The notes below the pieces were generated by a model. That model was not told the DNA's origin, did no database searches, and saw only the letters and a program-made list of their open reading frames with translations. The translations under genes were made by a program, and so were the position numbers. Positions 11,558-60,742 of a stretch of DNA of 64,000 nucleotides are shown here, piece by piece (within the stretch, counting starts at the first letter, position 1; every line of letters begins with the position of its first letter). The DNA is from Halorientalis sp. (GTDB lineage Archaea > Halobacteriota > Halobacteria > Halobacteriales > Haloarculaceae): positions 17,321 through 81,320 of the forward strand of contig NZ_JAQCNH010000001.1 in NCBI RefSeq assembly GCF_028275115.1. Direction: 5' to 3'.

Positions 11558-11599
11558 GCGAGTGAGACGGGCAATCCAGTCCGTCCACGAAAGCCAGCG

Positions 11600-11629
11600 T
11601 TCAAGTACGACCCGGTTGGACAACCGGGT
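11600..11629 (+). promoter_or_regulatory. TATA-like TTCAAG followed by a perfect 9-bp inverted repeat (candidate operator) just before the thiamine ABC operon start
   Basis: ACCCGGTTG-GA-CAACCGGGT at 11610-11629; ATG at 11631. Confidence 0.6.
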
Positions 11630-11630
11630 A

Positions 11631-12689: not shown

Positions 12690-12691
12690 CC

Positions 12692-16604: not shown

Positions 16605-16626
16605 CGACGGTCGCGTTGGGCCCCGG

Positions 16627-17481: not shown

Positions 17482-17652
17482 CGGGTAGGGGGGCGAGGGT
17501 GGGGTAGTTATCGGGCGACACTGAGCGGTCGAACCGCTTGGATTCGTCTACCTATCTATACGAGAGAACGCTGATAAATCTCCCCCGTACTCTCGGCGCT
17601 GAAACCGGTCGCGACCGGGAACCTATTTGACGACACCGGACCGAGTCAAAGT

Positions 17653-18528: not shown

Positions 18529-18571
18529 ACGGTCCGATTAGTTATTACCGATTGCGTGACTATCCCGTCTT

Positions 18572-20674: not shown

Positions 20675-20778
20675 TTCACAGGCACATCGGGCGACCGCCT
20701 CGCAATGCAGTGTCTACTGCTCACAACGCACATACGAATTGGCAACCTTCACACGGCTGGACCACCAACTGTGCGGTA

Positions 20779-21729
20779 ATGGCAACGGCAGAGGCCGAGG
20801 TGTCGCGAACGAGAGCTTGGCTGATGGCCGCACGGCCACAGACCCTGCCCGCCGGGGCCGCGCCGGTCGTCGTTGGGGCGGGTCTGGCGCTCCACGATGG
20901 GGTGTTCGCGCCGGCCGCGGCGACAGCGGCGCTGCTCGGAGCGCTCCTCCTGCAGGTGGGAACCAACTTCGCCAACGACTACTACGACGCGGTCAAGGGG
21001 ACCGACTCGGCCGACCGCGAGGGGTTCACGCGGGTAACCGCCGGCGGACTGATCGAGCCCACGCGCGTCAAGCAGGCGATGGCCGCCACATACGCGCTCG
21101 CAGTCGTCGTCGGCCTCTATCTCGTGTACATCGGCGGCCTCCCTATCCTGGTGGTTGGGCTCTCCAGCATCGGTGCCGGCATCGCTTACACCGGTGGTCC
21201 CTACCCGTACGGCTACCGCGGGCTCGGCGACCTGTTCGTCTTTCTGTACTTCGGCGTAATCGCCGTCGTCGGGACCTACTACGTGCAGGCAGCGGCCGTC
21301 CTGCCGGCCGTCGAGCCGCTCGCGATAGGGATTCCGGCGGGCACCGTAACCGCGGCCGCGCTGGTGGCCAGCCTCCCGGCGGCCGGGCTCTCGACCGCAA
21401 TCCTGATCGCGAACAACGTTCGGGACCGTGAGGAGGACGCCACGGCCGGAAAGCGGACGCTCGCGGTGCTGCTTGGCTACACGTTCAGCCGGGTCGAGTG
21501 GCTGGCGATGGTCGGGATGGCCTACGTCGTCCCCGTCCTGTTCGCACTGGACCCGGCCTTCGGCCTCCCGGCGCTGTTGCCACTGGCGACGTTGCCGCTG
21601 GCGGCCAGAGTAGGGGCGACAGTCATGGAACGCACCGACGGCGCGGCACTCAATCCGGCGCTGGAACGCACTGGCCAGCTACTGGCGGCGCACTCGGCGC
21701 TGTTCGCGACCGGACTGGCACTGACATGA
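20779..21729 (+). CDS. menA: 1,4-dihydroxy-2-naphthoate polyprenyltransferase
   Basis: AARPQTL, NFANDYYDAVKGTD, NNVRDREED, GKRTLAV. Confidence 0.95.
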   Translation: MATAEAEVSRTRAWLMAARPQTLPAGAAPVVVGAGLALHDGVFAPAAATAALLGALLLQVGTNFANDYYDAVKGTDSADREGFTRVTAGGLIEPTRVKQAMAATYALAVVVGLYLVYIGGLPILVVGLSSIGAGIAYTGGPYPYGYRGLGDLFVFLYFGVIAVVGTYYVQAAAVLPAVEPLAIGIPAGTVTAAALVASLPAAGLSTAILIANNVRDREEDATAGKRTLAVLLGYTFSRVEWLAMVGMAYVVPVLFALDPAFGLPALLPLATLPLAARVGATVMERTDGAALNPALERTGQLLAAHSALFATGLALT

Positions 21730-22760
21730 TCGACATCGAATCTTACCAGTTGGACCTGGCACGGCCGCTCTCGACCGCTCGCGGAACCATCGAGAAGCGT
21801 ACGGGCTTCCTCGTCAGAGTCGAATACGCCGACCGGATGGGTGTCGGCGAAGCCGCACCGCTCCCGGGTTGGACGGAATCGCTCGACGCCTGCCGGGACG
21901 CCCTGGACTGGGCACCGGAACTGGCCGGCGACGAGGACTGGGGCGTCGCCCTCGGGGAGACGTCCGAGCCGGCGGCCCGTCACGCGCTGGCGCTGGCGCT
22001 AGCCGACGCCCGAGCGAGACTCGACAACACGCCGCTGTACCGCTACCTCGGCAACGAACGACTCGTCCGTCGGGTGCCGGTAAACGCCACCGTGGGCGAC
22101 GCCGACTGCGAGACGACCGCGAGAGCGGTCACGAGGGCCGCCGAGAACGGCTTCGACTGCGTGAAAATCAAGGTCGGCGCGCGAAGCGTCGACGAGGACG
22201 CCGACCGCTTCCGGCGGGTGAGGGAAGTCGTCGGCGACGACGTGGCGCTGCGGGCCGACGCCAACGGCGCGTGGGACCGTGCGCAGGCCGAGCGCGCGAT
22301 GGATGCGCTGGAACCGTTCGACTTGGAGTACGTCGAGCAACCTATGCCCGCCGACGAGGTGGCGGCTCACGCTGGCCTCCGGAACGGGGGCAACGAGGTC
22401 CCTCTCGCGCTCGACGAGTCGGTAGCTGGCCGAGCCGTGACGGAACTGCTTGCCGCCGAGGCCGCGGACTATCTCGTTCTCAAGCCGATGGCGCTTGGCG
22501 GCCCCGACAGGGCCAGAAGCGTCGCGCGGCAGGCCAGACAGGCCGGCGTGACGCCGGTCGTCTCGACGACGATCGACAGCGTCGTCGCCCGGACCGCCGC
22601 GGTCCACGTCGCCGCCGCCATCCCCGAGGTTCCGGCCTGTGGCCTGGCGACGGCCGACTGGCTCGCTGACGACCTCGCTCCCGACCCCGCACCGGTCGCC
22701 GACGGGCAGATCGAAGTGCCGCAGGCGAAGGGGCTGGGAGTCGACCTCGGAGACGAGTGA
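21726..22760 (+). CDS. menC: o-succinylbenzoate synthase (enolase superfamily)
   Basis: GEAAPLPGWTE, VKIKVG, LRADANGAW, EYVEQP, ALDES, VLKPM; within the men cluster. Confidence 0.9.
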   Translation: MIDIESYQLDLARPLSTARGTIEKRTGFLVRVEYADRMGVGEAAPLPGWTESLDACRDALDWAPELAGDEDWGVALGETSEPAARHALALALADARARLDNTPLYRYLGNERLVRRVPVNATVGDADCETTARAVTRAAENGFDCVKIKVGARSVDEDADRFRRVREVVGDDVALRADANGAWDRAQAERAMDALEPFDLEYVEQPMPADEVAAHAGLRNGGNEVPLALDESVAGRAVTELLAAEAADYLVLKPMALGGPDRARSVARQARQAGVTPVVSTTIDSVVARTAAVHVAAAIPEVPACGLATADWLADDLAPDPAPVADGQIEVPQAKGLGVDLGDE

Positions 22761-24259
22761 TGGACTGGCCCGTCGAGGACCTCGTCGCCGCCCGCGCTGC
22801 CGCGACGCCGGACCGGACCGCACTGGTCGACGCCGACCGCGACGACACACAGAGCTATCGCGAGTACGACGCCGCAGTCGGTCGGTGGGCAACGGCGCTC
22901 GCCGCGCTGTCGGACGGCGACGAACCCGGCCGGGTCGCCGTCCTGATCGACACTCGACCGGCCGTCGCAGAACTGTTCTTCGCAGCCGAGCGACTGGGCT
23001 CGTCGGTCGTTTCGCTGAACGTCCGGCTGACGCCCGCCGAGTTGACCGAGCAGGTCGAGCGGACTGCACCGGATGTGCTGGTCTGTGAGCGCGACACGGA
23101 GAGAGTGGCTCTCGAAATCTTCGACGGCCCTGTGGCGTCCGTCGACGCGCCGGAGCGTGAGCGCGCCCGAGCACTCGATACGCTCGACGGCGGTCCCGTC
23201 GAGCCGGCCACGCTGAGCCCCGGCACGGAACAACTGGTCGTGTTCACCTCCGGAACCACGGGCCAGCCCAAGGGCGTCCGGCTGACCGTCGGCAATCTAC
23301 TGGCGAGCGCGACGGCGTCGGCCTTCCGGCTGGGCGTCTCGCCCGGTGACCGGTGGTTGTGCTGTCTCCCGACCTACCACATGGGTGGACTCGCACCGGT
23401 CGTCCGGTCCGCACTGTACGGCTCGACGGCCGTGATTCAGCGGGCGTTCGACGCCGAGTCGACGGCGGCGGTTCTCGACGAGTTCGGAATTACGGGCGTC
23501 TCGCTCGTCCCAACCATGCTCACGCGACTGCTGGATACGGGGTGGGAACCGTCCGAGCAGTTGCGGTTCGTCCTGCTCGGCGGCGCACCCGCCCCGGCGG
23601 AACTGCTGGTTCGCTGTCGGGACCGCGGCGTTCCGGCCTACCCGACATACGGCATGACCGAGACGGCCTCACAGATCGCCACAGCGACACCGGAGCAGGT
23701 AAATGCTCACGAAGGAACCGTTGGACAGCCGCTGGTGAACACCACTGTCACGCTCGTCGACGAGGACGGCGACCCGGCACCAGCGGGCGGGCGGGGCGAG
23801 GTCGTCGTCTCAGGGCCAACGGTGACGCCGGGCTATCTCGAACCCGACGTCACCGACGACGCGTTCGGTCCGGACGGCCTGCACACCGGCGACATCGGCT
23901 CCCGGGACGAGGACGGGCGGCTGTGGGTCCACAACCGCAAGGACGACCGGATCGTCACCGGGGGGGAGAACGTCGACCCCGGCGAGGTCGTAGCGGTCCT
24001 GCGGGACCACCCAGACATCCGGACGGCCGCTGTCGTGGGACTGGACGACAGCGAGTGGGGTGAACGGGTCGCGGCGCTGGTGGTGCCGGTAGACGAGGTG
24101 TCACTCTCGGTCGAGAACGTCGAGTCTCACTGTCGGGAGCGGCTGGCGGGGTTCAAATGTCCACGGACGGTCAGATTCGTCGACGAACTGCCGCGGACGG
24201 CTTCGGGGACCGTCGACCGGGCGCGGGTGCTAGAGCGGCTTCGAGAGGGAGGAGAATAA
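22757..24259 (+). CDS. menE: o-succinylbenzoate-CoA ligase
   Basis: [32 protein letters not shown]; overlaps menC. Confidence 0.9.
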
Positions 24260-30494: not shown

Positions 30495-30723
30495 GCACCC
30501 TTATTGACCCGGCCCTGTTAAAAGGGAACCGGTCCGTCAGTCACGCGTTCATCGACACACAGGCGGGCGACGGGGTGTCTTCTTTTGTATTCATAAGTAC
30601 TGGCCGCCACGTTACGTGGGTCGAACGCGTTCGCCGAACGAGCGGCCAAACCCGGACACACGGCCGCTACCGACGCTCGTGTGTCGGAGCGAGTATAACT
30701 GTCACCAATCGTGGTGGCGATAC

Positions 30724-31300
30724 AGGGTCCGAGACCCGTTCGCGGACGAGGACCGGTCCGGTCTACGGGGCGTGCTCGACGCGCTGGACGACCCGAAACG
30801 TCGAGCCATCGCCTGGAGCCTCGATGAACCCATGACGGCCGAAAAGTATCGGCGGCCTGTGACGTCCCGCTGTCGACCACCTACCGGAAACTGGACCTGC
30901 TGACCAAAGCGTCGCTGTTATTCGAGGGGGTGGAGATTCGACCCGACGGCCACACGCCGGCCAGTATCGGGTGAACTTCGGGGAGGTCGTCGTGGCCCCC
31001 GACGAGGACCGGGCGGTCAAAGCCGGCCTCAGTCGGACCGCCCGGACCGCAGACGAACGACTGCGGGGCCGCTGGTCGGAGGTGCGGGTAATCAATTACT
31101 TCTCGTACAGGACCGTTCGTCGAACCGGCGCGAAGCCACCTGGGTTCCTCGCGCGGGGGCTTGCAGTCGGAACCCCCGGGAGTACCCTGGCCAGCGTATT
31201 CGACCTCGTTCTGTCGCTCACCCGGGAGGGCACTATTATCGCCGAGAGCGCCCTCACGACACGAGGCGTTGCCGTCATCGTCTATTGGCTGTACGCACGG
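30724..31300 (+). pseudogene. Fused remnants of an ArsR-like winged-helix regulator and a downstream small membrane protein
   Basis: (AGG)VRDPFADED...VLDALDDP...CDVPLSTTYRKLDLL...EIRPDG spread over three frames, then YFSYR..RRTG...ESALTT..AVIVYWLY; start codon lost and an internal deletion joins the two genes. Confidence 0.65.
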
Positions 31301-41707: not shown

Positions 41708-43327
41708 TCAGCCCTGTCCGACCATACTGTCCTCGTCGTCCCACTCGCGCTCGCGGAGTTCGTACTTCTGAACCTTGCCGGTGGCCGTCGTCGGGAGTTC
41801 CGCGACGAACTCGAACCGCCGAACGAGTTTGTAACCGGCCAGCTGTGACTCACAGAACTGCTTGAGCTCTGCTGTCGAGACCGGCGGGTTCTCCGGGTCG
41901 TCGTTGGCCGGAACGACGAACGCCTTTGGCGTCTCGCCCCACTGCTCGCTGGGCGCCGGAATGACTGCGACCTGGCTCACCGCGTCGTGTTCGTAGAGCG
42001 TGTCTTCCAGTTCGATGCTGGAGATGTTCTCCCCACCCGAGATGATGATGTCTTTCTTCCGGTCCTGGATGGCGATCATCCCGTTGTCGTCGACTACGGC
42101 GAGGTCGCCGGTGTGATAGTAGCCCTCGATTCGGTCGGTGAAGGCCTCCTCGGTGGCGTCGGGTTTGTTCCAGTAGCGGTCCATCACCTGGTTGCCCCGG
42201 ACCACGACTTCTCCGATGGTTTCGTCGTCCCGTGGGACCGTCTCGCCGTCCTCGTCGACGACGCGCACGTCCGTCCCGAGGTAGCCCAGTCCCTGGCGTT
42301 TCTTCACTTTGAACCGGGCGTCGCTCTCGTCGTCGAACAGTCGGCGGGCGTCGGAGGTGGTGATGAGCGGACCGGTCTCGGTCGCGCCGTAGACGTGTTT
42401 GAGATGCCAGCCGAACTCGTCTTCCACCGTGCGGATCGTGGCTTCCGGCGGCGCGCTCCCGGCGGTGGCGATCCGGACCGCGTTCGCCCCGGCGGTCGCC
42501 ATGTCGCCGTCTTCGCTCGCGTAGTAGTCCGAGAGCATGTTCAGCACCGTCGGCGCGCCACACATGTAGGAGACGTCCTCGTCGACGACGGTGTCGAAGA
42601 TCCACTCGGCGTCGACACCGCGGGTGCAGACGTGGGTCGCGCCCATCCCGGTGACGGCGTAGATGTGGCCCCAGCCGTTGACGTGGAACATCGGCAGGGT
42701 CCAGAGATACACGTCGTCGTCGCGGAGTTCCTGGTGGACGGAGACGAGGTAGGCGTGTATCGTCTCGGTCCGGTGGGTCCGGACGACGCCTTTCGGGTCG
42801 CCGGTCGTCCCCGATGTGTAGTTGATCGTGATGTCGTCGTCTTCGTCCATCTCCGGCCGGTCGTAGCCGGTACCGGCAGCCTCGATCACTTCGTCGAAGG
42901 CGTCCCAGTCGCCGTCGACCGCGTCGGCGTCGTTCGTGACGAACGTCTCGGTCGGCACGTCGTCGCGGACGGCCTCGATGCGGTCGGCGTACTCGTGGTC
43001 GGCGTAGATGGCGTCGACCGCCGCGTCCGAGAGGATGTACTCGAAGTCGTCGGGGACTAGCCGGTAGTTCAGCGGTGTGTGGACCGCGCCGACCTGCATG
43101 CTCCCGAAGGCCGCTTCGAGGTGGTAGTGAGTGTTGGGGTCCAGTACCGCCACACGGTCGCCTTTCTCGACGCCGTGGTTCTGCAGGAAGGCAGCGAACC
43201 CGTCGGCTCGCGCGCCCAGTTCGTCGTAGCTGTACCGCTCCCCGGTCGTCGCAACGACGGCCTCCTGCTCGCCGAAGTGGCGTCGTGCTCGGTCCAGGAA
43301 GTCCGTAACCAGCAGTGGTTTTTCCAT
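41708..43327 (-). CDS. Long-chain fatty-acid--CoA ligase
   Basis: YTSGTTGDPKG, YGATET, YHTGDLA, ISGGENISS, TATGKVQK. Confidence 0.92.
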   Translation of the reverse strand: MEKPLLVTDFLDRARRHFGEQEAVVATTGERYSYDELGARADGFAAFLQNHGVEKGDRVAVLDPNTHYHLEAAFGSMQVGAVHTPLNYRLVPDDFEYILSDAAVDAIYADHEYADRIEAVRDDVPTETFVTNDADAVDGDWDAFDEVIEAAGTGYDRPEMDEDDDITINYTSGTTGDPKGVVRTHRTETIHAYLVSVHQELRDDDVYLWTLPMFHVNGWGHIYAVTGMGATHVCTRGVDAEWIFDTVVDEDVSYMCGAPTVLNMLSDYYASEDGDMATAGANAVRIATAGSAPPEATIRTVEDEFGWHLKHVYGATETGPLITTSDARRLFDDESDARFKVKKRQGLGYLGTDVRVVDEDGETVPRDDETIGEVVVRGNQVMDRYWNKPDATEEAFTDRIEGYYHTGDLAVVDDNGMIAIQDRKKDIIISGGENISSIELEDTLYEHDAVSQVAVIPAPSEQWGETPKAFVVPANDDPENPPVSTAELKQFCESQLAGYKLVRRFEFVAELPTTATGKVQKYELREREWDDEDSMVGQG

Positions 43328-43402
43328 CGCGACTCGCAAAACGGGCGAAAACCTAATAGAAGTTTGCGACGACTCCGTGGCGTGGGAACGGCCGTTCGGG
43401 TC

Positions 43403-45748
43403 TCAGCGGTCCGCGGTCGCGCCGAGGGTAACGGGTAGCGACATCGCGACGACCGACCCGTCGGGGCCGGCTTCGGGGACCGAGATCGAGCCGCCAGCCG
43501 CGGTGACAGCCCAGTTGGCCAGCCACAGGCCGAGACCGCTCCCGTGGTCCAGTGGCGTCTCGGAGCTCCCCTCCAGCACGGCACGGTCCTGGTCGGGGAG
43601 GCCCGGGCCCTCGTCTGCGATCCGGACCGTCACGGTGTCGCCGTCGCTCTCGACGTCAACCTCGACGGTCGGTTCGGCGTTGGTAGCGTGTTTGATTGCG
43701 TTCTCGAGCAACTCACGGATAGCCACGTCGAGCGTCGGTTCGACGGCCGCCACGGTGTCGGCGTCGCCCCGGACCGTAATCGTCGCGTCGGGGTGTTCGC
43801 CGGACAGCGACTCGTTCACGCGGTCGAGCAGCGAGCCGACCTGGACGCTGTCGGCGTCGGGGTCGCGCACGTCAAGCTGGCCGAACGTCCGTGCCTTCTC
43901 ACCCAGTTCGGTCAGCCCGCGAGCCGTATCGAGAATGCGCGCGAGGTGGGCCCGCTCGTCGCCGGAGGTCAGGGAGTCCTCGATCATCGAGGCCCGGCCG
44001 ATGATGACGTTCATATCGTTGCGGATGTTGTGGCGGAGGACGCGGTTGAACACACTCAGAGCCTGTTCACGATGTTTGCGGTCCTGCACGTCGCGAACGC
44101 TCGCCAGGACGTGGTCGGTGCCGTCGAGTTCGAGTTCGGCGGCCGACACCTCGACCGGAATGCGGCTGCCATCGCGGTGGCGCATGAGCAGTTCGTCTGC
44201 CCGCGCCCGGCCGGTGGACAGTGTCGACGCGACCAGCCTTCGGAAGGCGTCGAGGTCATCCCGACAGAGCGTCGACGGGGCCGTCGTTCGTAGGGTCGCC
44301 CGGTCGTAGCCGAGCAGTTCACACGCCCGGTCGTTGCAGTTCACGACGGTGTCGGCATCGGGGTCGACCAGCAACAGGCCGTCACTGGCCGACTCGAACA
44401 TCCGACTGAACCGCTTGCGTGCGGTCCGGAGCTGGTCGATCCGGTCGGTCCGTTCGAGGGCGGCCACGACGTTCGAGCCGAGCATCCCGGCCATCGATTG
44501 GTCGATCTCGTCGAAGGTCGCCGCCGTGCTGGAGCCGGCGACCAGCACACCCTTGGTGTCCAGCGGAACGACGAGCAGACTCCGTATCGGTTCGGCGAAG
44601 CCGGTCCCGTCCAGGCCGTCGGTGTCGTCGTACTCCGAGGGGGTCCCGTCGTCCAGCGTCTCCCAGAGACGGGCCCCCGCCCCGTCGGCTCTGCCGAGCG
44701 GGTCGGGGTCGGCCGGGCACCCGTGGCTCGCGGCCGCCCGGAGCCTCGTCTCGGGGCCGTCGCCCACGAGCCACACGCGTGTCCGGGGTGCATTGAGGGC
44801 GGCCACGGCGACTCTGGCGGCCGTCTCACAGACCGAGTCGGCCGTCGTCGCTCGCATCAGGTCGGCGGCGCCGTCGTGGAGCGCGTCCAGCGCCGCCCTT
44901 CGGCGCGTCCGTTCGAGTTCGTGGCTCAGCCAGCGGGCGGCGAGACTGACGAACGCTCGCTCCGCCTCGCTGAACGGGCCGTGGGGTGACCGGTCCATGA
45001 AACAGACCGTGCCGTACAGCGATCCGCCGACCGTGATACGCGCCCCGAGGTAACACTCGATGTCGTTTTCCTCGTAGGCCGGGTCGCCGTCCCAGCCCTG
45101 TTCGGCGGCGTGGTTGAACGCCAACACGTCGTCGGACTCGATGGTCCGCCGGCAGAACGTCGTCGGGAGGTCCATCAACTCCTCGGGTTCGAAGGACAAC
45201 TCGCCGACGCTCGTCACTATCTCGTACCGTTCGGGGCCGCGGTCGATCGTCGAGAGGTGGGCGTTCTCGACACCCAGCCTGTCGCGGCCGATTCCGAGGA
45301 TTCGGTCGGCTTTCTCTTGGAAGGAAAGCGTCGCGTTCGTCGCCACGTCGTAGAGGTCACGCAGGTACCGCTCGTCGGTGTCGGGCGCTGGCGACCCGTC
45401 CCGGGTCTGCAGGCCCTGTACGACGCCGCGCACACGGTTTGCCAGCGCCGCGAATCGGTTCCCCTCGCAGACCACCAGGTCGGTCGCCTCGGCCGCGGTC
45501 GCCCGGGAGCGGACGCTCGACGCGTCGGCCGGCGTCGCGAGGACGACCAACGGCACGTCGCCCCGGTCGCCGAGCGCGTCCCAGTCCCGGTCCGAAAGCG
45601 GCGCGACGGCGACGACACAGTCCGGCACCGCCCCGTCGGCGTCAACGAGGACGACGTCGTCGTAGACGGTTTCGAGAGCTCGTAGAACGTCGCCGCGGTC
45701 CCCCTTGGTATCGGTGACGATTCGGGTCGTGAGTCGCGCGGTCATCAC
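43403..45748 (-). CDS. Orphan sensor histidine kinase (degenerate receiver, GAF, GAF, PAS, HisKA, HATPase)
   Basis: TFCRRTIE GAF; FESASDG...NDRACELLGY PAS; RHNIRNDMN H-box; ELLENAIKH, DEGPG, GSGLGLW. Confidence 0.9.
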   Translation of the reverse strand: MMTARLTTRIVTDTKGDRGDVLRALETVYDDVVLVDADGAVPDCVVAVAPLSDRDWDALGDRGDVPLVVLATPADASSVRSRATAAEATDLVVCEGNRFAALANRVRGVVQGLQTRDGSPAPDTDERYLRDLYDVATNATLSFQEKADRILGIGRDRLGVENAHLSTIDRGPERYEIVTSVGELSFEPEELMDLPTTFCRRTIESDDVLAFNHAAEQGWDGDPAYEENDIECYLGARITVGGSLYGTVCFMDRSPHGPFSEAERAFVSLAARWLSHELERTRRRAALDALHDGAADLMRATTADSVCETAARVAVAALNAPRTRVWLVGDGPETRLRAAASHGCPADPDPLGRADGAGARLWETLDDGTPSEYDDTDGLDGTGFAEPIRSLLVVPLDTKGVLVAGSSTAATFDEIDQSMAGMLGSNVVAALERTDRIDQLRTARKRFSRMFESASDGLLLVDPDADTVVNCNDRACELLGYDRATLRTTAPSTLCRDDLDAFRRLVASTLSTGRARADELLMRHRDGSRIPVEVSAAELELDGTDHVLASVRDVQDRKHREQALSVFNRVLRHNIRNDMNVIIGRASMIEDSLTSGDERAHLARILDTARGLTELGEKARTFGQLDVRDPDADSVQVGSLLDRVNESLSGEHPDATITVRGDADTVAAVEPTLDVAIRELLENAIKHATNAEPTVEVDVESDGDTVTVRIADEGPGLPDQDRAVLEGSSETPLDHGSGLGLWLANWAVTAAGGSISVPEAGPDGSVVAMSLPVTLGATADR

Positions 45749-45885: not shown

Positions 45886-47586
45886 TCAGGCCAGTCCGAC
45901 GGTCTCCTGGTAGGAGCCGTAATGGTCCTCGAAGACGCCCATAATCTCGCCCATGGTCGCGTACGCTTTCACTGCGTCGACGATGGCGGGCATGACGTTC
46001 TCGTCGTTCGCAATCGCCGCCCGGACGTCCGTCAGCGCGTCGTCGACCGTTCCGTCGTCGCGTTCGGCTTTCACCGTCGCCAGGCGTTCGCGCTGGCGGT
46101 CGCCCGTTGCCTCGTCGACGCGTAACAGGTCCGGCGATGTGTCCTCGGCGATGGTGTACTCGTTGACGCCGACGACGACTTCCTCGCCCTCGTCGACGCG
46201 CTCCTGGTACTCGTACGCCGAGTCCTGAATCTCGCGGTGGAAATACCCGTTCTCGATGCCCGTCAGCACGCCGTCCCGGACCGATCCATCGCCCATCCCC
46301 CTGAGCTCCTCGAGGTAGGCCATCGTCTCGGCCTCGACCTCGTCGGTCAGTGTCTCGATGGCGTAGCTCCCGCCGAGCGGGTCGACGATGTCGGCCGCGC
46401 CGGATTCCTCGGCGATAATCTGCTGGGTCCGCAGGGCGACCCGCACTGCCTCCTCACTGGGCAGGGCCAGTGCCTCGTCGAAGCTGTTGGTGTGGAGACT
46501 CTGGGTGCCACCCAGCACGCCCGCGAGCGCCTGAATCGTCACGCGAACCACGTTGTTGAGCGGTTGCTGAGCGGTCAGCGACTGCCCCGCGGTCTGGGTG
46601 TGGAACTTCATCTGTTTCGAGGCGTCGCTCTCCGCGCCGTACCACTCGTCCATCAGCCGGGCGTAAATTCGCCGACCCGCCCGGAACTTCGCCACCTCCT
46701 CGAAGATGGAGTTGTGGGAATTGAAAAAGAAAGACAGCTGTGGACCGAAGGCATCCACGTCGAGCCCGCGGTCGAGACAGTCCTCGACGTAGGCGAAGCC
46801 GTCGGCGAGGGTGAATGCCAACTCCTGGACGGCGGTCGAGCCAGCCTCGCGGATGTGGTAGCCGGACACCGAAACGGGTTTGAATTTCGGCGTCTCTTCG
46901 ACGGCGAACTCGACCACGTCCGTCACGACGTCGAGTGAGGCCGCCGGGGGAACGACCCACTCTTTTTGCGCGATGAACTCTTTGAGCATGTCGTTCTGGA
47001 GCGTGCCCCGGATCTCCTCGCGTGGCACCCCCTGCCGGTCCGCGAGCGCCAGGTACATAGCGTAGACCACCGGCGCGCTCGGATTGATCGTGAACGACGT
47101 CGAGACCGCACCCAGGTCGATCCCGTCGAAGAGAATCTCCATGTCCCGGAGCGTGTCGACGGCGACACCCTCCTTACCCACCTCGCCCTGGCTCATCCGG
47201 TCGTCGCTGTCCAGTCCCATCAGGCTCGGCATGTCGAACGCGACGGAGAGGCCGGTCTGTCCCTTGTCGGTCAGGTAGTGAAATCGCTCGTTGGTCTCCT
47301 CTGCCGTCCCGAAGCCGGCAAACTGCCGCATCGTCCAGGTCCGGCCGCGGTACATCGTGGGGTAGACGCCGCGTGTGTACGGTTCCTCGCCCGGGAAGCC
47401 GATGTCCGCGTCGTAGTCGCGGTCGGCCACGTCTTCGGGGGTGTACAGCCGGTCGACCTCGTGGTTCGATACGGTCGCGAACCGGTCCTGACGCTCGCCG
47501 TGGCGCTCCAGTACCGGGTCGAGTGTCTCGCGCTCCCACTCCTCGCGGTCCGCCTGGATGGCCGCGAGGTCGTCCTCGTCGTACAT
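45886..47586 (-). CDS. Coenzyme-B12-dependent acyl-CoA mutase, large (substrate-binding) subunit; isobutyryl-CoA-mutase-like specificity residues
   Basis: FPGEEPYTRG, WTMRQFAGFG, SVAFDMP, GTLQNDMLKEFIAQKEW, GYHIREAG, SLHTNSFDEA. Confidence 0.92.
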   Translation of the reverse strand: MYDEDDLAAIQADREEWERETLDPVLERHGERQDRFATVSNHEVDRLYTPEDVADRDYDADIGFPGEEPYTRGVYPTMYRGRTWTMRQFAGFGTAEETNERFHYLTDKGQTGLSVAFDMPSLMGLDSDDRMSQGEVGKEGVAVDTLRDMEILFDGIDLGAVSTSFTINPSAPVVYAMYLALADRQGVPREEIRGTLQNDMLKEFIAQKEWVVPPAASLDVVTDVVEFAVEETPKFKPVSVSGYHIREAGSTAVQELAFTLADGFAYVEDCLDRGLDVDAFGPQLSFFFNSHNSIFEEVAKFRAGRRIYARLMDEWYGAESDASKQMKFHTQTAGQSLTAQQPLNNVVRVTIQALAGVLGGTQSLHTNSFDEALALPSEEAVRVALRTQQIIAEESGAADIVDPLGGSYAIETLTDEVEAETMAYLEELRGMGDGSVRDGVLTGIENGYFHREIQDSAYEYQERVDEGEEVVVGVNEYTIAEDTSPDLLRVDEATGDRQRERLATVKAERDDGTVDDALTDVRAAIANDENVMPAIVDAVKAYATMGEIMGVFEDHYGSYQETVGLA

Positions 47587-47848: not shown

Positions 47849-48655
47849 TCAAGCGTCGTCTTCCTGCAGTCGCTTGGTCGTCTTGACCAGTGGGTGGTGG
47901 GCGTACTCGACTTCCTCGATGTCTCCGATCGACGCCAGACTCTCTTTCCGTGCGGTCTCGGCCATCCCGAGTTCGACGCGCTCGTCGATGACGATGACGT
48001 AGGCGTCCATCTCATCGATACCGAGGCTGTCGGCGGCTTTTACACGGTGGTGGCCGTCGGCCAGCAGGAACGCGCCATCGTTGTCGATGACGACGAGCGG
48101 TTCGGCCAGCCCTCGTTCCAGTTCGTACCGCCGTCCCTCCAGTTCGTCGGCGTAAACCCGGCTCTGCGTCGGCGTGAGCCGTTCGAGGGACACTTTACGG
48201 CGGTCCTCACGGGTCTCGATGTCGTGAATCGTCTCCAGAGTTCGCTGGAGTTTCTCGACCTTGCCGGGTGTGGCGCGTTCGATCTGGCTGCGGATCACGT
48301 CGGCGTTGCTGATGATTCCGACGAGGTTGCCGGCGTCGTCGACGACGGGGAGCCGCTGGATACCCGACCGGAGGATGACGCGACCGGCGTCGTCGAGTTT
48401 CATGTCCGGATGAGCGACCAGCAGGTCCTGAGTCATGACTTTGAAAATGGGTTCGTGGTCCGCCGCGAGCAGGAGGTCACGGGCGCTGACGAACCCCTCG
48501 ACGTGACGGCCGTCACAGACCGGGAACCCACTGTGGGTGTCGTCGCTCTCTGCGATCCGGCGAGCGACGGCTTCGACCGTGTCGTCGGGCGAGACGGTGG
48601 CCACGTCCCGGGTCATGTAGTCTTCGACGCGTGGCTTCTCGTCGTCGGAATCCAT
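47849..48655 (-). CDS. CBS-pair plus ParB/Sulfiredoxin-like domain protein
   Basis: EDYMTRDV...HSGFPV...IQRLPVVD CBS pair; LTPTQ...EPLVV...LADGHHRVKA ParB/Srx motif. Confidence 0.88.
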   Translation of the reverse strand: MDSDDEKPRVEDYMTRDVATVSPDDTVEAVARRIAESDDTHSGFPVCDGRHVEGFVSARDLLLAADHEPIFKVMTQDLLVAHPDMKLDDAGRVILRSGIQRLPVVDDAGNLVGIISNADVIRSQIERATPGKVEKLQRTLETIHDIETREDRRKVSLERLTPTQSRVYADELEGRRYELERGLAEPLVVIDNDGAFLLADGHHRVKAADSLGIDEMDAYVIVIDERVELGMAETARKESLASIGDIEEVEYAHHPLVKTTKRLQEDDA

Positions 48656-48746
48656 CACCTGGGATATCTCCCCGCGTCGTAAAAACCCCTTCGGCAGGCG
48701 ATTCTCGACCGTCACCGCCGACGCGGAACTCGCAGGACGGATTCGC

Positions 48747-50258
48747 TCACCGGTCGTTCGCGAACGGGCCACCCGGCATCAGTCCCGTCCGCTCGCCCCG
48801 TGGGCGTTCCTGTAGCGCCTCGAAGAACCGCTCTGCCACGAACGCCTCTGCGTCGCCGGTGAGGTCGACAGTATCGTCGGTGTCGGTACTCTCGTCCTCG
48901 CGGTCCTCGGTCGTCCCCTCGGCCGTCGCTGGGTCGAGTGCGGTGTCGACGACGGGAATCTGTGCGCCCGCCATATCGGCGTGGCCACCGGCACTCCCGA
49001 TCTGGTCGAACGCCGACCGGAGCGTCTCGCCCATATCGAGGTCGGTCCCCCTGGCGCGACCGGAGACGTAGACCACACCGTCGATGTTCCCGTAGACGAC
49101 GGTCGCCTGAACGTCCTCCAGGTTCAGCAGTCGATCCGCCGCCTGCGCGAGCGCGTCACGGCCGCTCAACTCACCGACACAACTGGTCAGGACCGGCCCC
49201 CGGCGTTCGCGGTTGGCGATGGCTCGTGCGATCGTCTCGAGCGTGTCGCCGCTGATCGACGGGGACTCGACCCGGTCGAGCGCGTCCATGTCCGCGGCCT
49301 CGACGACGGTCCCGGCTGCCTCGAAGTCGGCCGTCGAGACTTCCCGCGTGAAGTCGTCTGTATCGACCCGGATGCCAAAGAGCAGTCCGGTCGCGACTGT
49401 CTCCTCGATGGTGATGCCGAACTGGTCGAGATACTGCACCAGCAGGGTGCTCGTCGCGCCGACGTTGCTACGGAGGTCGACGAACCCCGCTTCCGCCGGG
49501 GCACGGGGCGGGTGGTGGTCGATGACGATGTCGACTGGTGTGTTCTTCGGTAACTGGTCGTTGACTCCCGGTCGGGAGTGATCGACCAGCGCGAATCCGC
49601 CGAATCGACCGAGGTCGGCGTCGGGTTCGAGCCGAGTGAGGTCGAACTCGAGGAGGTTGACGAACGCACGATTCTCTTGATGAGAGATACGCCCGTAGTA
49701 ACACACCTCGGCCTCGAGGCCCAGCACCGCCGCGAGTCGCTGGAGCGCCACCGCGCTCGCGATGGCGTCCGGGTCCGGGTTGTTGTGAGTGACGATAGCC
49801 AGCGGTTCGTCGACCGCCCAGAACGCCCGCCGAAGTTTCCGAGCCTGGAGCCCCTCGTCTCCAACTCGACGGTGTAGGAAGTCGCCAGTCACGGCACCGG
49901 GTTCGACGAGCGTGTCGGTCAGTGACCGCAGTTCCGAGAGGATGGTCTCGTCGGGTTCGAGGCCGGCGAAGGCGAACAGCATCGCGTCGGGGATGGCTTC
50001 GCTGGCGACTGTCGCCCGGCGGTAGTTCTCTCGGGGGTCGTCGCCCGCGACCACGACCGTGTCGACACCGTCGGCGTGGGTTTCGAGCGTCGCGACGTCG
50101 AGACAGTCAACGTGCGTCGCGGCCACACCTTCCTCGCGCAACCGCTTGACGCGGCGTTCGTTCTCGTCGAGAACCGATACCACGCCCGGCCTGTCGACGA
50201 GCGCAGAGACGAGGTCGTGGCCGACCGACCCACACCCCACGACCAGCCGGGTTTGCAT
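48747..50258 (-). CDS. TrkA-N/RCK domain fused to a DHH/DHHA1 phosphoesterase
   Basis: VVGCGSVG Rossmann motif; HNNPDPDAIAS, LVDHS, IDHHP, GIRVDT, GSAGGH. Confidence 0.9.
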   Translation of the reverse strand: MQTRLVVGCGSVGHDLVSALVDRPGVVSVLDENERRVKRLREEGVAATHVDCLDVATLETHADGVDTVVVAGDDPRENYRRATVASEAIPDAMLFAFAGLEPDETILSELRSLTDTLVEPGAVTGDFLHRRVGDEGLQARKLRRAFWAVDEPLAIVTHNNPDPDAIASAVALQRLAAVLGLEAEVCYYGRISHQENRAFVNLLEFDLTRLEPDADLGRFGGFALVDHSRPGVNDQLPKNTPVDIVIDHHPPRAPAEAGFVDLRSNVGATSTLLVQYLDQFGITIEETVATGLLFGIRVDTDDFTREVSTADFEAAGTVVEAADMDALDRVESPSISGDTLETIARAIANRERRGPVLTSCVGELSGRDALAQAADRLLNLEDVQATVVYGNIDGVVYVSGRARGTDLDMGETLRSAFDQIGSAGGHADMAGAQIPVVDTALDPATAEGTTEDREDESTDTDDTVDLTGDAEAFVAERFFEALQERPRGERTGLMPGGPFANDR

Positions 50259-50325
50259 ATACCTCCATGACGGACGAACGCCGATAAACCTTTGATTTCG
50301 GCCGGGTCGCACCCACCGAGGCGCG

Positions 50326-50837: not shown

Positions 50838-51773
50838 TCAGCGGTGATGATGGAGCAGGTCCGCCGAGCGCTCCCACTCGCTGTCCTCGCTGAGGTACCG
50901 CTCCGCGAGGGGGTCGGCGGGCATCTCGTCGGTGGCCCGCTTCTCCGCCCCGTAGGACGGTCGGTCGCTGTCGACGTAGAACCGGCCCGTGAGGACTTCG
51001 CCCTCGTGGAGGCGTGACTCGGCGTCGTACATCGCCTCGGCGGCCTCGCGTCGGTCAGTCACGTCGAAGTCGAAGTCCTCGGCGTCCTGTACGTCCGTGT
51101 AGGGGACGTACTGTTTGGCGTCCTTGTTCCAGGTGGGACACTGGGTGAGGAAATCGACGTGCGCGAACCCGTCGTGTTCCATGGCCTCGATTAGGATCTC
51201 TTTGGCCTGGTTGGGGTTGACCGCCGCCGTCCGGGCGACGTACGACGAGCCCGATGCCAGCGAGAGCGACATGGGCCGCACGGGGTCCTTGGCGCTCCCG
51301 TGGGGCTGGGTCTTGGACTTGTGACCCTTCGGACTGGTGGGTGACGTCTGGCCCTTCGTCAGCCCGAAGATTTCGTTGTTGAACACGATGTAGGTCATGT
51401 CGTGGTTCTCCCGGGCAGTGTGCATGAAGTGGTTGCCGCCGATGCCGTAGCCGTCGCCGTCGCCACCGGCCGCGATCACTTCCAGTCCCGGGTTGGCCAG
51501 TTTGGCGGCCCGCGCCACGGGCAACGAGCGCCCGTGGATGCTGTGGAAGCCGTAGCTCTCGAAGTACGAGGAGAGCTTGCCCGAACAGCCGATACCCGTG
51601 ACGAGCAGAGTCTCGTCGGGCGTGCGGCCTACTTCGGGCATGGCCTGTTTCAGCGCCTTCAGGACGCCGAAGTCGCCACAGCCTGGACACCAGGTCGCTT
51701 GTGGCTCGATGCCGGGTGTGAACTCGTCGCGGTCGATCTCGCGGTCCTCGCCGATTGCGCTGAATACACTCAT
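50838..51773 (-). CDS. porB: Pyruvate:ferredoxin oxidoreductase beta subunit
   Basis: WCPGCGDFG, GIGCSGK, GGDGDGYGIGGNH, FGLTKGQTSPT. Confidence 0.9.
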   Translation of the reverse strand: MSVFSAIGEDREIDRDEFTPGIEPQATWCPGCGDFGVLKALKQAMPEVGRTPDETLLVTGIGCSGKLSSYFESYGFHSIHGRSLPVARAAKLANPGLEVIAAGGDGDGYGIGGNHFMHTARENHDMTYIVFNNEIFGLTKGQTSPTSPKGHKSKTQPHGSAKDPVRPMSLSLASGSSYVARTAAVNPNQAKEILIEAMEHDGFAHVDFLTQCPTWNKDAKQYVPYTDVQDAEDFDFDVTDRREAAEAMYDAESRLHEGEVLTGRFYVDSDRPSYGAEKRATDEMPADPLAERYLSEDSEWERSADLLHHHR

Positions 51774-51775
51774 TG

Positions 51776-53680
51776 TTAGTCACCTGCTGCTGGGACGAAT
51801 TTGGTTCCGTCCGGGACGGGGGCGTCCCGGGTGACGATACGCTCGAAGCCCTCGACGATCTCGGAGGGCTCGAATGCCTCACCGTTGTACTTCAGGAGGC
51901 TGTTGAGCTTCGGCCCGAACCGGCCGAGTTCCTTCTGGGTCAGCCCCCGAAACTGCGCCGAGGCGTTCATCTCGGCGACCAGGCAGGCCTCCACCGACTC
52001 CAGGAAGTCCGCCACCTCCCGCTCGGGATAAGGCATCAGATCGCTGACGCCCAGCGCCATCACGGACGCTCCGGCCTCGTTCAACTGGTCGACGGCCTCG
52101 AAGACGGTGTCTTGCTGACTGCCCCACGCCAGCAGGCCGTAGTCGGCGTTCTCGGGACCGTAGCGTGTCTGGTGGGACGCCTCGCCGTCGTTCAGTTCCT
52201 CCCGGATGGCGTCGAGTTTCGACATCCGGCGGTCCATCTGTGCGACGCGGTTGGTCGGGCTCTCGCTGATGTGGCCCTCTGGCGTGTGTTCGTTGCCCGA
52301 TGCGAGGAAGCGGCCATCTTTCTGTCCGGGAACCGACCGCGGACTGACGCCGTTCTCGGCGTCGTGCTGGTAGCGCTCGAACTTCCCCGACTCGTGGTGG
52401 GCCGCCTCACGTATTTCGTCCTCGGTGAGGACGCTTCCGGGGTCGTCGTTGGGCTCCCGGTCGAAGAAGGACTCGTCGACGTTGCGCATCTCGCCGGAGA
52501 GCTTCTGGTCGATGACGACGATAGCCGGAAGCTGGTACTCGTAGGCCACCCGAAAGGCCGCACGGGTCTGCTCGTAACACTCACCGACGTTGGCTGGCGC
52601 GAACACGACCCGGCAGGAGTCTCCCTGACTCGTGTAGAGGACATGTTCGAGGTCGGCCTGTTCGGGTTTGGTTGGCATCCCCGTCGAGGGGCCGGCCCGC
52701 ATCGCCTCGATCAGGACCACCGGCGTCTCTGTCATCTCCGCCAGCCCGAGGGGTTCGGACATCAGGGCGAACCCGCCACCGGAGGACCCGGACATCGCCT
52801 TGACACCGGCGTGGGAAGCCCCGACTGCGAGGGAAGCGGCGGCGATTTCGTCTTCGACCTGTTCGGCGATACCGCCGAACTTCGGGAGGTGCTGGGAGAG
52901 AATCGTGAATACGTCCGTCCAGGGGGTCATCGGGTACCCCGAAATGAACCGACAGCCCTCGTCGATAGCCCCGTAGGCGACGGCGCTGCTCCCGGACATC
53001 AGTACCTGCTGTTCGCCGTGGTCACCGGTGGGCACGCGGAGGTCGTGGGTGATCGTGTACTCCTCGCGCACCGAGTCGTAGGCGCGTTCGAGGATGTCGA
53101 GATTGGCTGCCAGCACGTCGCCGGTCATGGCGTCTTCCATCAGGTCCTCGATGTGGTCCACGTCCATGTCGAGCAGTGCGGCGGTCGCACCGACACCGGC
53201 GGTGTTTCGCATCACTTCCCGTCCGTGTTCGCGGGCGAGGGCTCGCAGGTCGAGGGGGTAGACGTGCCAGTCGTTCTCCTCGGCCCGGGCCTCCAGATCC
53301 AGGCCGGCACGCTCCAGCGTGTCCTGGTCGAGCAGTCCCTCGTCGTAAACGACCACGCCGCCCTCGTTGAGGTCGTCGAGGTTCTCCGAGAGGGGCTTGA
53401 TCTCCTCGTTGCCGTAAACAGTGTCGGCACCGTCCTGTGGGTTGCGGGCGAAGCTATCGCCCAGTGCCAGCAGGAAGTTGAAGCCGTCTCCCCGCGACCG
53501 GACGGGGTCTGCGTCGGCCCGTACCTCGACGTAGGTGTGGCCGCCCCGAATCCGTGAGGGGTAGTGTCGGTGTGTGAATACGTCCAGTCCCGCGCGCATC
53601 AGTGCCTTGGCGAAATTCTGGCTCGTGGAATCAATTCCGTCACCGGAGCCACCAGCGATGCGCCACATTAGTTCTGTCAT
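51776..53680 (-). CDS. porA: Pyruvate:ferredoxin oxidoreductase alpha subunit (gamma-alpha fusion)
   Basis: WRIAGGSGDGIDSTSQNFAKALMR...YPSRIRGGHT (Por rather than Kor type), GYPMTPW, EDEIAA, RAGPSTGMPT. Confidence 0.9.
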   Translation of the reverse strand: MTELMWRIAGGSGDGIDSTSQNFAKALMRAGLDVFTHRHYPSRIRGGHTYVEVRADADPVRSRGDGFNFLLALGDSFARNPQDGADTVYGNEEIKPLSENLDDLNEGGVVVYDEGLLDQDTLERAGLDLEARAEENDWHVYPLDLRALAREHGREVMRNTAGVGATAALLDMDVDHIEDLMEDAMTGDVLAANLDILERAYDSVREEYTITHDLRVPTGDHGEQQVLMSGSSAVAYGAIDEGCRFISGYPMTPWTDVFTILSQHLPKFGGIAEQVEDEIAAASLAVGASHAGVKAMSGSSGGGFALMSEPLGLAEMTETPVVLIEAMRAGPSTGMPTKPEQADLEHVLYTSQGDSCRVVFAPANVGECYEQTRAAFRVAYEYQLPAIVVIDQKLSGEMRNVDESFFDREPNDDPGSVLTEDEIREAAHHESGKFERYQHDAENGVSPRSVPGQKDGRFLASGNEHTPEGHISESPTNRVAQMDRRMSKLDAIREELNDGEASHQTRYGPENADYGLLAWGSQQDTVFEAVDQLNEAGASVMALGVSDLMPYPEREVADFLESVEACLVAEMNASAQFRGLTQKELGRFGPKLNSLLKYNGEAFEPSEIVEGFERIVTRDAPVPDGTKFVPAAGD

Positions 53681-56480: not shown

Positions 56481-57629
56481 TTACCACTGCCCGTAGATCA
56501 GGTTGCGCTGAATCTCGTTTGCGCCTTCGTAGATGACGGGAATGCGAACGTCGCGGTAGACCCGCGAGATGCGGTTCTCGGTGAGGACCGAGCGACCGCC
56601 GTGGAGTTGCATGCCACGTTCGGCACACATCGTCGCCGTCTCGGTGGACTTCACCTTCGCCTGTGCGGCCCAGAGCCCGGAGTTGTCGTTGTTCGCGACC
56701 TTGTCCGCGGCCCGCCAGTTGAGTGACCGGGCGGCCTCGAACTCCGTCCGCATGTCCGCGAGGATGTGCTGGACCTTCTGGAACTCGCTCACGTCACGCC
56801 CGAACGCCTGGCGACCGTGAACGAAGTCGTGGGCCTCCTCGATGGCCGCTGCCGCGAGGCCGAGCGCGTGTCCGCCGACTACCACGCGCCCGTGGTTGAA
56901 GAAGTCTGCGAGCATGTAGAAGCCCGTGCCCTCGGTTCCGATGACGTGGTCCTCTGGAATCCGGGCGTCGTTCAGGTAGACGTGGGCCTGTTTGGAGGCT
57001 CGGAAGCCCATCTTCTCGGGGATGTGTTCGGCATCGTAGCCGTCGGTGTCGGTAGGGACGATGAACATCGAGAAGTTACCGTAGCGGTCGTCCTCGTCGT
57101 GGCCGGTCCGGGCGTACAGCGTCACCCAGTCGGCCTCGACACCGTTACCGATCCAGTACTTCTCACCGTTCAGGACCCACTCGTCGCCGTCCTTCTCGGC
57201 AGTGGTCTCCATCCCGGCGAGGTCGCTGCCGGTCTCGGGTTCGGACACTGCCAGACCGGTAATCTGTTCGTTGTTCGCGACCGGGCGGAGGAACTCCTCT
57301 TTCTGCCAGTCCGAGCCGTACTCTTCGAGCATCTCCGCGCCGAAACTGGCCAGTTGCAGCGTCAGGCCGATCCCGGCGTCGGCCTTGTAGAACTCCTCGG
57401 CCATGGCGAACATCTGATGCATGTCGAGTCCACGACCGCCGTACTCCTCGCTGATGTCCTGGCCGACCAGATTGGCCTCCATGCCCGCCTCGAGCACTTC
57501 CCAGGGGTACTCAGCGGACTCGTAGTAGTCTGCCGCGACCGGCTCGATATGCTCCGCTGCGAACTCCCGAGCCTCCTGTTTCACGTCGTGCGCGCGCTCT
57601 GGCACCACATCTTCCGTTAGCAACTCCAT
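56481..57629 (-). CDS. Acyl-CoA dehydrogenase
   Basis: AVSEPETGSD, LNGEKYWIGNG, KMGFRAS, QLHGG, IYEGANEIQR. Confidence 0.93.
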   Translation of the reverse strand: MELLTEDVVPERAHDVKQEAREFAAEHIEPVAADYYESAEYPWEVLEAGMEANLVGQDISEEYGGRGLDMHQMFAMAEEFYKADAGIGLTLQLASFGAEMLEEYGSDWQKEEFLRPVANNEQITGLAVSEPETGSDLAGMETTAEKDGDEWVLNGEKYWIGNGVEADWVTLYARTGHDEDDRYGNFSMFIVPTDTDGYDAEHIPEKMGFRASKQAHVYLNDARIPEDHVIGTEGTGFYMLADFFNHGRVVVGGHALGLAAAAIEEAHDFVHGRQAFGRDVSEFQKVQHILADMRTEFEAARSLNWRAADKVANNDNSGLWAAQAKVKSTETATMCAERGMQLHGGRSVLTENRISRVYRDVRIPVIYEGANEIQRNLIYGQW

Positions 57630-59083: not shown

Positions 59084-60742
59084 TCACTGGCTCTCGGGCG
59101 CGGCGTCTTCGGGGACCTGCCCTTCGACGAGGTCCTCGTCGGCGTACTCCTCGCGCAGGTCTTTCTTCGAGAACTTCCCGGTCGCGGTCTTGGGGACCTC
59201 GTCGATCTGGATGAAGTCGTCCGGAAGCCACCACTTGGGGTAATCCTCGGCGATCTCCTCGCGCAGGTCCTCTGCCACGGCGTCGGGGTCGGCCTCCTCG
59301 ACCGGGACGATGAACGCAACGGGGCGTTCCTGCCAGCGTTCGTGGGGAACGCCGACGACGGCGGCCTCGGCCACGCCGTTGTTTGCCATGATGGCGTTCT
59401 CCAGTTCGACCGAGGAGATCCACTCCCCGCCGGATTTGATCACGTCCTTGGCGCGGTCGACAATCTTGATGTAACCGTCGTCGTCGACGGTCACCACGTC
59501 GCCGGTCTTGAGCCAGTCGCCCTCGAAGTCGTTCTCGTTGGCTTCCGGGCGCTCGAAGTACTCCTGGGTGACCCAGGGGCCGCGAACGTACAGTTCGCCG
59601 AAGTCCTCACCGTTCCACGGAATCTCGTTGCCGTCGTCGTCGATGACTTTGAACTCCAGGCCGGGAACGACCAGACCCTGCTTGGCCCGGCGGTCGAGCT
59701 GTTCGTCGTAGGAGAGTTCCTCGGCCAGCCCGGATTTGAGGTGGGCGACCGACCCGATGGGCGACATCTCCGTCATTCCCCAGGCGTGGGTGACGGACAC
59801 GTCGTACTGGTCGAACCACTCGATCATGGCCTTCGGCGCCGCCGAACCGCCGATAATTACGGTTTCGAGTTCCGAGAGGTCGACCTCGTTGCCGGCCTGC
59901 ATGTACTCCTGCAGGCCGAGCCAGACGGTCGGGACGCCGGCGGTAATGGTGACGCCCTCTTCCTCGAGCAACTGTGCGATGTCGGCAGGCTCGGGCGACG
60001 GACCGGGATAGACGTGTTTCGCGCCGGCGGCGGTCGTCGAGAACGGCATCCCCCAGGCGTTGACGTGGAACATCGGGACGACTGGCATCACCACGTCGTC
60101 GTCCTCGACACCCAGCCCCTGGGGCGTCATTGTCGCCATCGTGTGCCCCCAAAGCATCTGCTGGGTGTACTCGACGCCTTTGGGTTTGCCCGTGGTGCCG
60201 GAGGTGTAACACATCCCGGCGGGTTGGTCCTGGTCGACGACCGGCCAGTCGTATTCGGTCTCGTGGCCCTCGATGAACGACTCGTAGTCGACGGCGTCGT
60301 AGGGCAGGTCCGGAACCGAGTCACCCATGACGACGATTTGCTCGACGCTGTCGAACGAGTCGGCGTCGTAGGCGCTCCCGAGCTTCTCCGCGAGCGAGGG
60401 GTCGACGAAAATCGCCTTGTCGGCGGCGTTCTCGACGATGAACTGGATGTGTTCGTCGGGAAGCAGGGGGTTGATAGTGTGGAGTTGCGCGCCCAGCGTC
60501 GGAATACCGAAGTAGGTCTCGAAGTGGCGGTGATGGTTCCAGCAGAACGTCGCGATGCGGTCGCCCTCACCCATACCGGCGTCGGTCAGGGCGTGGGCCA
60601 GTTGTGCTGTACGGTTGCTGTACTCCTCGTATGTGTAGCGTTCGATTCCCTGGTGGGTCCGTGAGACGATCTCTGTGTCGGGATAGAGATTTTCCGCACG
60701 CCACAGGAACGGCCGTAGTGTCTGGTCAGTGCCTCCTGGCAT
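59084..60742 (-). CDS. Medium/long-chain fatty-acid--CoA ligase (AlkK-like)
   Basis: [43 protein letters not shown]. Confidence 0.92.

Follow-up and report, generated by a model that had tools for sequence, protein, structure and literature searches.

Which substrate does the second conserved B12-dependent mutase subunit of haloarchaea rearrange? The question is raised by a gene at 45886-47586 in the stretch of DNA considered here (the window: 64,000 nucleotides of Halorientalis sp., contig NZ_JAQCNH010000001.1, positions 17,321 to 81,320 of the forward strand). Database sources name its product methylmalonyl-CoA mutase (MCM) or a protein of that family, as a preliminary description of the window had anticipated, and that description proposed an isobutyryl-CoA mutase (ICM)-type enzyme in its place. 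On the comparisons presented below, the open reading frame most likely encodes the large (substrate-binding, TIM-barrel) subunit of a two-subunit, adenosylcobalamin (AdoCbl)-dependent acyl-CoA mutase of the ICM type. We consider it probable that this is the catalytic subunit of a split enzyme for which n-butyryl-CoA and isobutyryl-CoA are the most likely substrates. The enzyme type is well known; the result is an annotation correction for this subunit. The features concerned are:

45886-47586, minus strand: mutase large subunit, ATG start, 566 residues
47320-47322, minus strand: TTT codon of Phe89, at the position of MCM Tyr89 and HcmA Ile90
47239-47241, minus strand: codon of Ala116, at the position of HcmA Asp117 (GLSVAFDMP here, GISTDFDMP in HcmA)
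47221-47223, minus strand: codon of Leu122, a third class-correlated site, from the column comparison
46966-46968, minus strand: CAA codon of Gln207, at the position of MCM Arg207

At two specificity sites of this enzyme family, ICM and the fused enzyme IcmF carry Phe and Gln. The preliminary description had placed such a pair in the window protein, and both codons lie exactly where it put them: Phe89 falls in the motif WTMRQFAGF, which begins at residue 84, and Gln207 in LKEFIAQKEW, which begins at residue 201. HMMER alignments to solved structures (1req/5req, 2xij, 6oxc, and 4r3u) uphold the equivalence of these residues to MCM positions 89 and 207. Phe89 aligns with residue 89 of P. shermanii MutB (5req is the Y89F mutant), with the Tyr of RQYAGF in human and M. 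tuberculosis MCM, and with Ile90 of HcmA. Gln207 aligns with the Arg of FMVRNT in MCMs and with a Gln in HcmA. Tyr and Arg at the two sites mark MCM, according to Jost et al. (2015) as cited in a passage of PMC7238569. With Phe and Gln in place of both residues by which MCM binds the substrate carboxylate, methylmalonyl-CoA and succinyl-CoA cannot be bound in the MCM manner.

When the clades are compared column by column, only three positions, 89 (Phe/Tyr), 122 (Leu/Gln), and 207 (Gln/Arg), separate all Phe/Gln-type from all Tyr/Arg-type sequences, and the other conserved columns are common to both types. Together with site 116, the patterns at sites 89/116/122/207 are:

window protein: F/A/L/Q
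split MCMs: Y/A/Q/R
HcmA (M. petroleiphilum PM1; Xanthobacter Xaut_5021): I/D/L/Q
PcmA, the characterized pivalyl-CoA mutase (PCM; Xaut_5043): L/L/F/N

Site 122 is Leu (Ile in 2 of 57 loci) in the Phe/Gln type and in the 2-hydroxyisobutyryl-CoA mutase (HCM) type, to which HcmA belongs, Gln in split Tyr/Arg MCMs, and His in the alignments of P. shermanii and human MCM. Across 76 loci from named genomes, which include Thermus, Armatimonadota, Chloroflexota, Acidobacteriota, Actinomycetota, Gemmatimonadota, Bathyarchaeota, Aenigmatarchaeota, and Thermoplasmatota, 57 read F-A-L/I-Q, 19 read Y-A-Q-R, and none shows a mixed pattern. Closer to home, WTMRQFAG is kept in 120 of the 120 closest database homologs (81-100% identical; from Halorientalis, Halorubrum, Halorussus, Halostella, Halosimplex, Halalkalicoccus, and others), and LKEFIAQKE is matched in 119 of them. 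Because the motifs are kept in these homologs and the two types stay unmixed in the 76 loci, the Phe/Gln pair at 89/207 is evidently not due to chance. To judge from the same loci, the Phe/Gln split mutase is very widespread and generically labeled in databases; the cluster representatives at 50% identity bear generic labels only. Some long Phe/Gln representatives were first taken as IcmF-like, an assignment that was rejected, the best match of one of them (P0173) in the PDB being HcmA. The Streptomyces plasmid matches that were checked are all of the Tyr/Arg type.

Could the protein be a second MCM isozyme, as in older annotations? The database names would suit this explanation, and so would the strong match to the MCM-family domain model TIGR00641 (acyl-CoA mutase N-terminal domain; 715.6 bits, residues 36-561), with PF01642 also listed as a precomputed domain. 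The distribution of the gene can be read the same way. A mutase homolog is present in 141 of 151 sampled Halobacteria genomes, and an ortholog of at least 70% identity in ~121 of the 151 (~80%; an estimate from the best E-value per genome), usually accompanied by a second paralog at ~60%. Among the matches listed, the Phe/Gln type is never seen without the Tyr/Arg type, and the 18 genomes with a single match all lie in the Tyr/Arg-type score range, type being judged here by score. Against an isozyme, however, stand the loss of both carboxylate-binding residues and a score of 578 bits with the MCM equivalog model NF006944, under its 876-bit cut-off. Moreover, the genome already has a canonical MCM. 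This second large subunit (G000:C100:133152-134816, locus L002:1501-3180; 559 residues, 59% identical to the window protein) reads RQYAGM and IARNTY, the Tyr/Arg signature, scores 675 bits with NF006944 compared with 578 for the window protein, and is encoded ~1 kb upstream of a methylmalonyl-CoA epimerase gene (136 bits against a curated cut-off of 115). By signature and setting it is evidently the genuine MCM of this genome.

The phylogeny, which the preliminary description had suggested as a check, also speaks against an MCM isozyme. In the final tree (60 rows, IQ-TREE, LG+C20 PMSF), the Tyr/Arg rows all fall in a single clade (99/99), from which the window protein is excluded. That clade takes in fused MCM representatives, the haloarchaeal paralogs, and two split MCMs (Brevibacillus and Ilyobacter) whose genes adjoin epimerase and carboxyltransferase genes. 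The window protein sits within a haloarchaeal Phe/Gln clade (100/100) whose sister is a set of Phe/Gln paralogs from two other Halobacteriota families (99/99), and these families carry Tyr/Arg copies of their own. The named HcmA sequences and an I/D/Q representative stand beside the archaeal Phe/Gln clade with weaker support (72/97); the window protein groups with the Phe/Gln and HCM types on the non-MCM side of the 99/99 branch. A single change between Gln207 and Arg207 suffices on this tree. FastTree and a quick IQ-TREE run, in which the haloarchaeal Tyr/Arg paralogs came out as the sister group of the archaeal Phe/Gln sequences, had suggested an independent origin of Phe/Gln from haloarchaeal MCM. 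This topology was rejected as a search artifact: in an approximately unbiased (AU) test, the tree with all Phe/Gln together is better than the quick tree by 43.7 log-likelihood units, and two careful searches recovered the arrangement that holds all Phe/Gln-type rows together. On this evidence, a second MCM isozyme is very unlikely.

The predicted structure and the conservation of the protein bear on whether it is an active enzyme at all. An AlphaFold model built from a 42-sequence alignment has a pLDDT of 90.2; of the solved and Swiss-Prot structures compared with it, the one that superposes most closely is HcmA (TM 0.96, 48-49% identity), which is also the best PDB match by sequence (4r3u, 580 bits). 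The mutase barrel is complete, every residue conserved throughout the aligned relatives is retained, and so are the columns that are near-invariant across the Phe/Gln and Tyr/Arg types (for example Q197, Y243, H244, S285-F288, H329, Q331, and Q362-H365). Orthologs across the class are 70-95% identical, with the open frame intact among the matches listed. These features, including the confident predicted fold, make it the least likely of the explanations considered that the paralog is decaying or has no catalytic function, persisting for instance as a remnant with a regulatory or scaffolding role, even though no small-subunit or MeaB gene adjoins the mutase gene and its neighbors differ between genera. 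The closest named homologs are those of Halorientalis regularis, H. pallida, and H. persicus (93-94% identity).

Mutase copies related to the window protein also occur on megaplasmids of Natrinema, Haloterrigena, Natribaculum, Natronorubrum, and others (plasmid records H1-H19), where they are 76-82% identical by overall identity alone; some of these records carry a mutase copy at two places. In a different family of the phylum (f16), three small genomes (G177, G187, and G196) have four mutase large-subunit paralogs each, partly in tandem (three matches within 7 kb on G196:C44) and 36-47% identical to the window protein.

The Ile90 and Asp117 of HCM (HcmA numbering) are replaced in the window protein by Phe89 and Ala116, and the hydroxyl-binding Asp of HCM is thus absent. 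The protein differs from PcmA at all four sites. Nor does it have the fused IcmF architecture of B12 domain, MeaB-like GTPase, and barrel: it is a barrel of 566 residues only, and it scores 351 bits with the fused IcmF model NF045497, whose cut-off is 1500 bits. What is found is the combination expected of a split ICM, namely the barrel, the Phe/Gln pair, and, elsewhere in the genome, a separate DxHxxG small subunit and a MeaB-type G-protein. The proposal of an ICM-type enzyme rather than an MCM therefore draws support from the alignment to solved structures, the Tyr/Arg paralog near an epimerase gene, the 99/99 split in the tree, and the mismatch to HCM and PCM.

A member of the ICM/HCM/PCM radiation with another main substrate, whether isovaleryl-CoA/pivalyl-CoA, a hydroxyacyl-CoA, or an undescribed acyl-CoA, is an unlikely alternative. 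In its favor, identity to any characterized enzyme is at most 48-49%, and HcmA and an I/D/Q representative lie next to the archaeal Phe/Gln clade in the tree. Five residues (M119, S121, Y175, A228, and G356) are fixed in the haloarchaeal clade and unlike those in bacterial Phe/Gln and in Tyr/Arg sequences. In addition, an insertion at 433-437 is common to archaeal Phe/Gln sequences and absent from bacterial ones, and the family holds dozens of uncharacterized residue triplets. The site patterns of HcmA and PcmA argue against this alternative, as does the exact agreement of the three class-discriminating sites with the widespread Phe/Gln type; the columns near-invariant across both types are also unchanged. 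As for the triplets, about a third of 150 mutase-family cluster representatives (P0121-P0270) have combinations at 89/116/207 that match no characterized enzyme, such as VVV, IVL, LTS, QDH, VVR, and VVG; the family holds much unexplored specificity.

Several considerations weigh against ICM activity itself. No characterized IcmA is among the rows of the tree, the Swiss-Prot fold search with the window model has no split IcmA among its entries, and the scan of genome contigs for mutase loci has no Streptomyces among its matches. The nearest characterized enzyme, HcmA, is related only at the level given above, and fused IcmF is distant (285 bits; 33-37% identity). Exchange of Tyr89 and Arg207 alone is not known to turn MCM into an ICM, and two or three residues are indicators, not proof, of such activity. 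Gene context gives only loose guidance: in Halorubrum lacusprofundi, the mutase ortholog has no acyl-CoA genes on either side.

A split mutase requires a B12-binding partner, and the preliminary description was right that none is encoded in the window. The only mutase-type B12-binding small subunit of the genome is on another contig (G000:C15, region of 30537-30884; 139 residues, TIGR00640, with DGHDRG as its DxHxxG motif), and a single MeaB GTPase gene follows it. The Halorientalis assembly is 92% complete; as a check set we used five relatives that are 99% complete and in 1-5 contigs. In all five, two large subunits are accompanied by a single TIGR00640 small subunit, and the count of one per two large subunits is therefore real in these genomes. 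The ICM-type enzyme does not have a small subunit or MeaB of its own, as both large subunits have to do with a single copy. Directly downstream of the small-subunit/MeaB pair is an IS605 OrfB-type transposase gene (L007:8498-9529, G000:C15), and a thiolase gene lies ~3.5 kb beyond it on the same contig.

We predict that the window large subunit pairs with this single small subunit, and that small subunit and MeaB are common to it and the MCM large subunit. The 5'-deoxyadenosyl radical would then drive the interconversion of n-butyryl-CoA and isobutyryl-CoA, with isovaleryl-CoA/pivalyl-CoA as a possible side reaction. The CoA-ester substrate is probably supplied by an enzyme encoded close by:

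41708-43339, minus strand: AMP-forming acyl-CoA synthetase (Pfam AMP-binding and AMP-binding_C), downstream of the mutase gene

In Halorientalis regularis, Halalkalicoccus, and Halorussus, orthologs of this synthetase (74-93% identical) are encoded a short way downstream of the mutase. Coordinates compared by hand place an ortholog at most 10 kb from the mutase in ~31 sampled genomes, which represent 13 genera and 6 families. An acid-CoA ligase is also part of HCM operons, and this parallel, together with the conserved synthetase neighbor, agrees with a pathway whose starting point is a free short-chain acid, which the synthetase would activate. Valine or isobutyrate carbon could in this way reach butyryl-CoA and from there β-oxidation or polyhydroxyalkanoate (PHA) precursors.

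In five haloarchaeal genomes, a 3-hydroxyisobutyrate dehydrogenase model has no match and all matches to a methylmalonate-semialdehyde dehydrogenase model are under the cut-off. If these absences are true, valine carbon could sensibly be routed through butyryl-CoA, formed by isomerization of isobutyryl-CoA. By the same models, however, both enzymes are also missing from one genome that lacks the Phe/Gln gene, and archaeal orthologs may be under-detected; the absences are weak support for the valine route. A broader scheme is possible, although we hold it only tentatively: in most Halobacteria, one small subunit and one MeaB may serve both MCM and the ICM-type enzyme, and the latter, with the synthetase, may be the main route of valine or isobutyrate carbon into butyryl-CoA, which would agree with the absences just described.

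Between the mutase and the synthetase, at 43403-45748, lies a gene for a GAF-GAF-PAS histidine kinase of 781 residues, an insertion seen in Halorientalis, including H. regularis, and not in Halalkalicoccus or Halorussus.

The closest functional analogue of the enzyme proposed here is IcmA/IcmB of Streptomyces cinnamonensis (EC 5.4.99.13). Like that enzyme, it is split into a large subunit of ~566 residues and a separate small B12-binding subunit of ~140 residues encoded at another locus, has Phe and Gln at both specificity sites, and is predicted to depend on AdoCbl and a MeaB-type chaperone. Unlike it, the window enzyme belongs to an archaeal, halophilic host and appears to have its small subunit and MeaB in common with an MCM large subunit. 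With HcmA (Aquincola tertiaricarbonis, 4r3u; M. petroleiphilum PM1; Xaut_5021), the window protein has in common the split organization, Gln207, Leu122, and a linked acid-CoA ligase gene. It differs at Phe89/Ala116 (Ile90/Asp117 in HcmA) and in that HCM operons keep the small subunit, ligase, MeaB, and large subunit adjacent, whereas the window locus does not.

MCM (P. shermanii MutB, human MMUT, and the paralog in the same genome) has the same fold and invariant residues, and the small subunit and MeaB of this genome probably serve the window protein as well as the MCM paralog. The window protein is 37-42% identical to fused MCMs, compared with 59% to its own split paralog. The two enzymes differ in Tyr89/Arg207/Gln122 (His122 in P. 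shermanii and human) versus Phe/Gln/Leu, in clade, and in the epimerase gene, which is near the MCM paralog only. IcmF (Cupriavidus metallidurans, 4xc6) and PcmA (Xaut_5043) are members of the same acyl-CoA mutase family that act on uncharged acyl-CoAs. The former is a fusion of ~1,100 residues with MeaB and B12 domains and the latter has the four-site pattern given above, at 38% identity by Foldseek and about 40% by sequence comparison. Ethylmalonyl-CoA mutase is 34-36% identical to the window protein.

A 2010 review gives ICM as known only from bacteria (PMC2847961), and the annotation "isobutyryl-CoA mutase subunit B" is found for an archaeal genome in PMC7285479. The literature searched contains no characterization of an archaeal ICM and no paper that deals in substance with isobutyryl-CoA mutase in haloarchaea. 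When haloarchaeal metabolism is reconstructed, both large subunits are counted as MCM, and models of propionate, valine, and poly(3-hydroxybutyrate-co-3-hydroxyvalerate) (PHBV)-precursor metabolism are affected. If the enzyme is an ICM in the roughly four fifths of sampled Halobacteria that have the ortholog, these models lack a B12-dependent step that connects branched with straight C4 acyl-CoAs. An arrangement in which one small subunit and one chaperone go with two large subunits would also make a natural system for studying how a cobalamin module is allocated between two enzymes.

The preliminary description had further appealed to the many acyl-CoA genes of the window as support for a branched-chain acyl-CoA rearrangement. 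This argument carries little weight, as several of the genes belong to menaquinone synthesis. The genes in question, and the remaining fatty-acid genes, are:

8439-9782: MenF-like gene
9725-11557: MenD-like gene
17653-18528: MenB (enoyl-CoA-hydratase-family gene)
20710-21729: MenA
21498-22760: MenC
22757-24259: MenE (ligase)
1521-3500: FadB-like gene
56481-57629: acyl-CoA dehydrogenase
59084-60742: acyl-CoA ligase

The region 8439-24259 is a menaquinone biosynthesis cluster, interspersed with transporter, AIR-synthase-like, DnaJ, and PKD-domain genes, and MenB, MenE, MenA, and MenC were rejected as supporting context. The FadB-like, dehydrogenase, and ligase genes lie 9-45 kb from the mutase. 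What stands of the argument is the synthetase at 41708-43339, a conserved neighbor.

Upstream of the mutase, at 47849-50312, are a CBS-domain gene and a TrkA-N/DHH/DHHA1 gene. The pair is syntenic in Halorientalis regularis, Halalkalicoccus, Halorussus, and Halosimplex and has no obvious functional link to the mutase. Farther on, at 50838-53680, a two-gene 2-oxoacid:ferredoxin oxidoreductase (POR/POR_N/PFOR_II and a thiamine pyrophosphate (TPP)-binding subunit) could supply acyl-CoAs; in H. regularis, the oxidoreductase gene pair is followed by an AsnC-type regulator.

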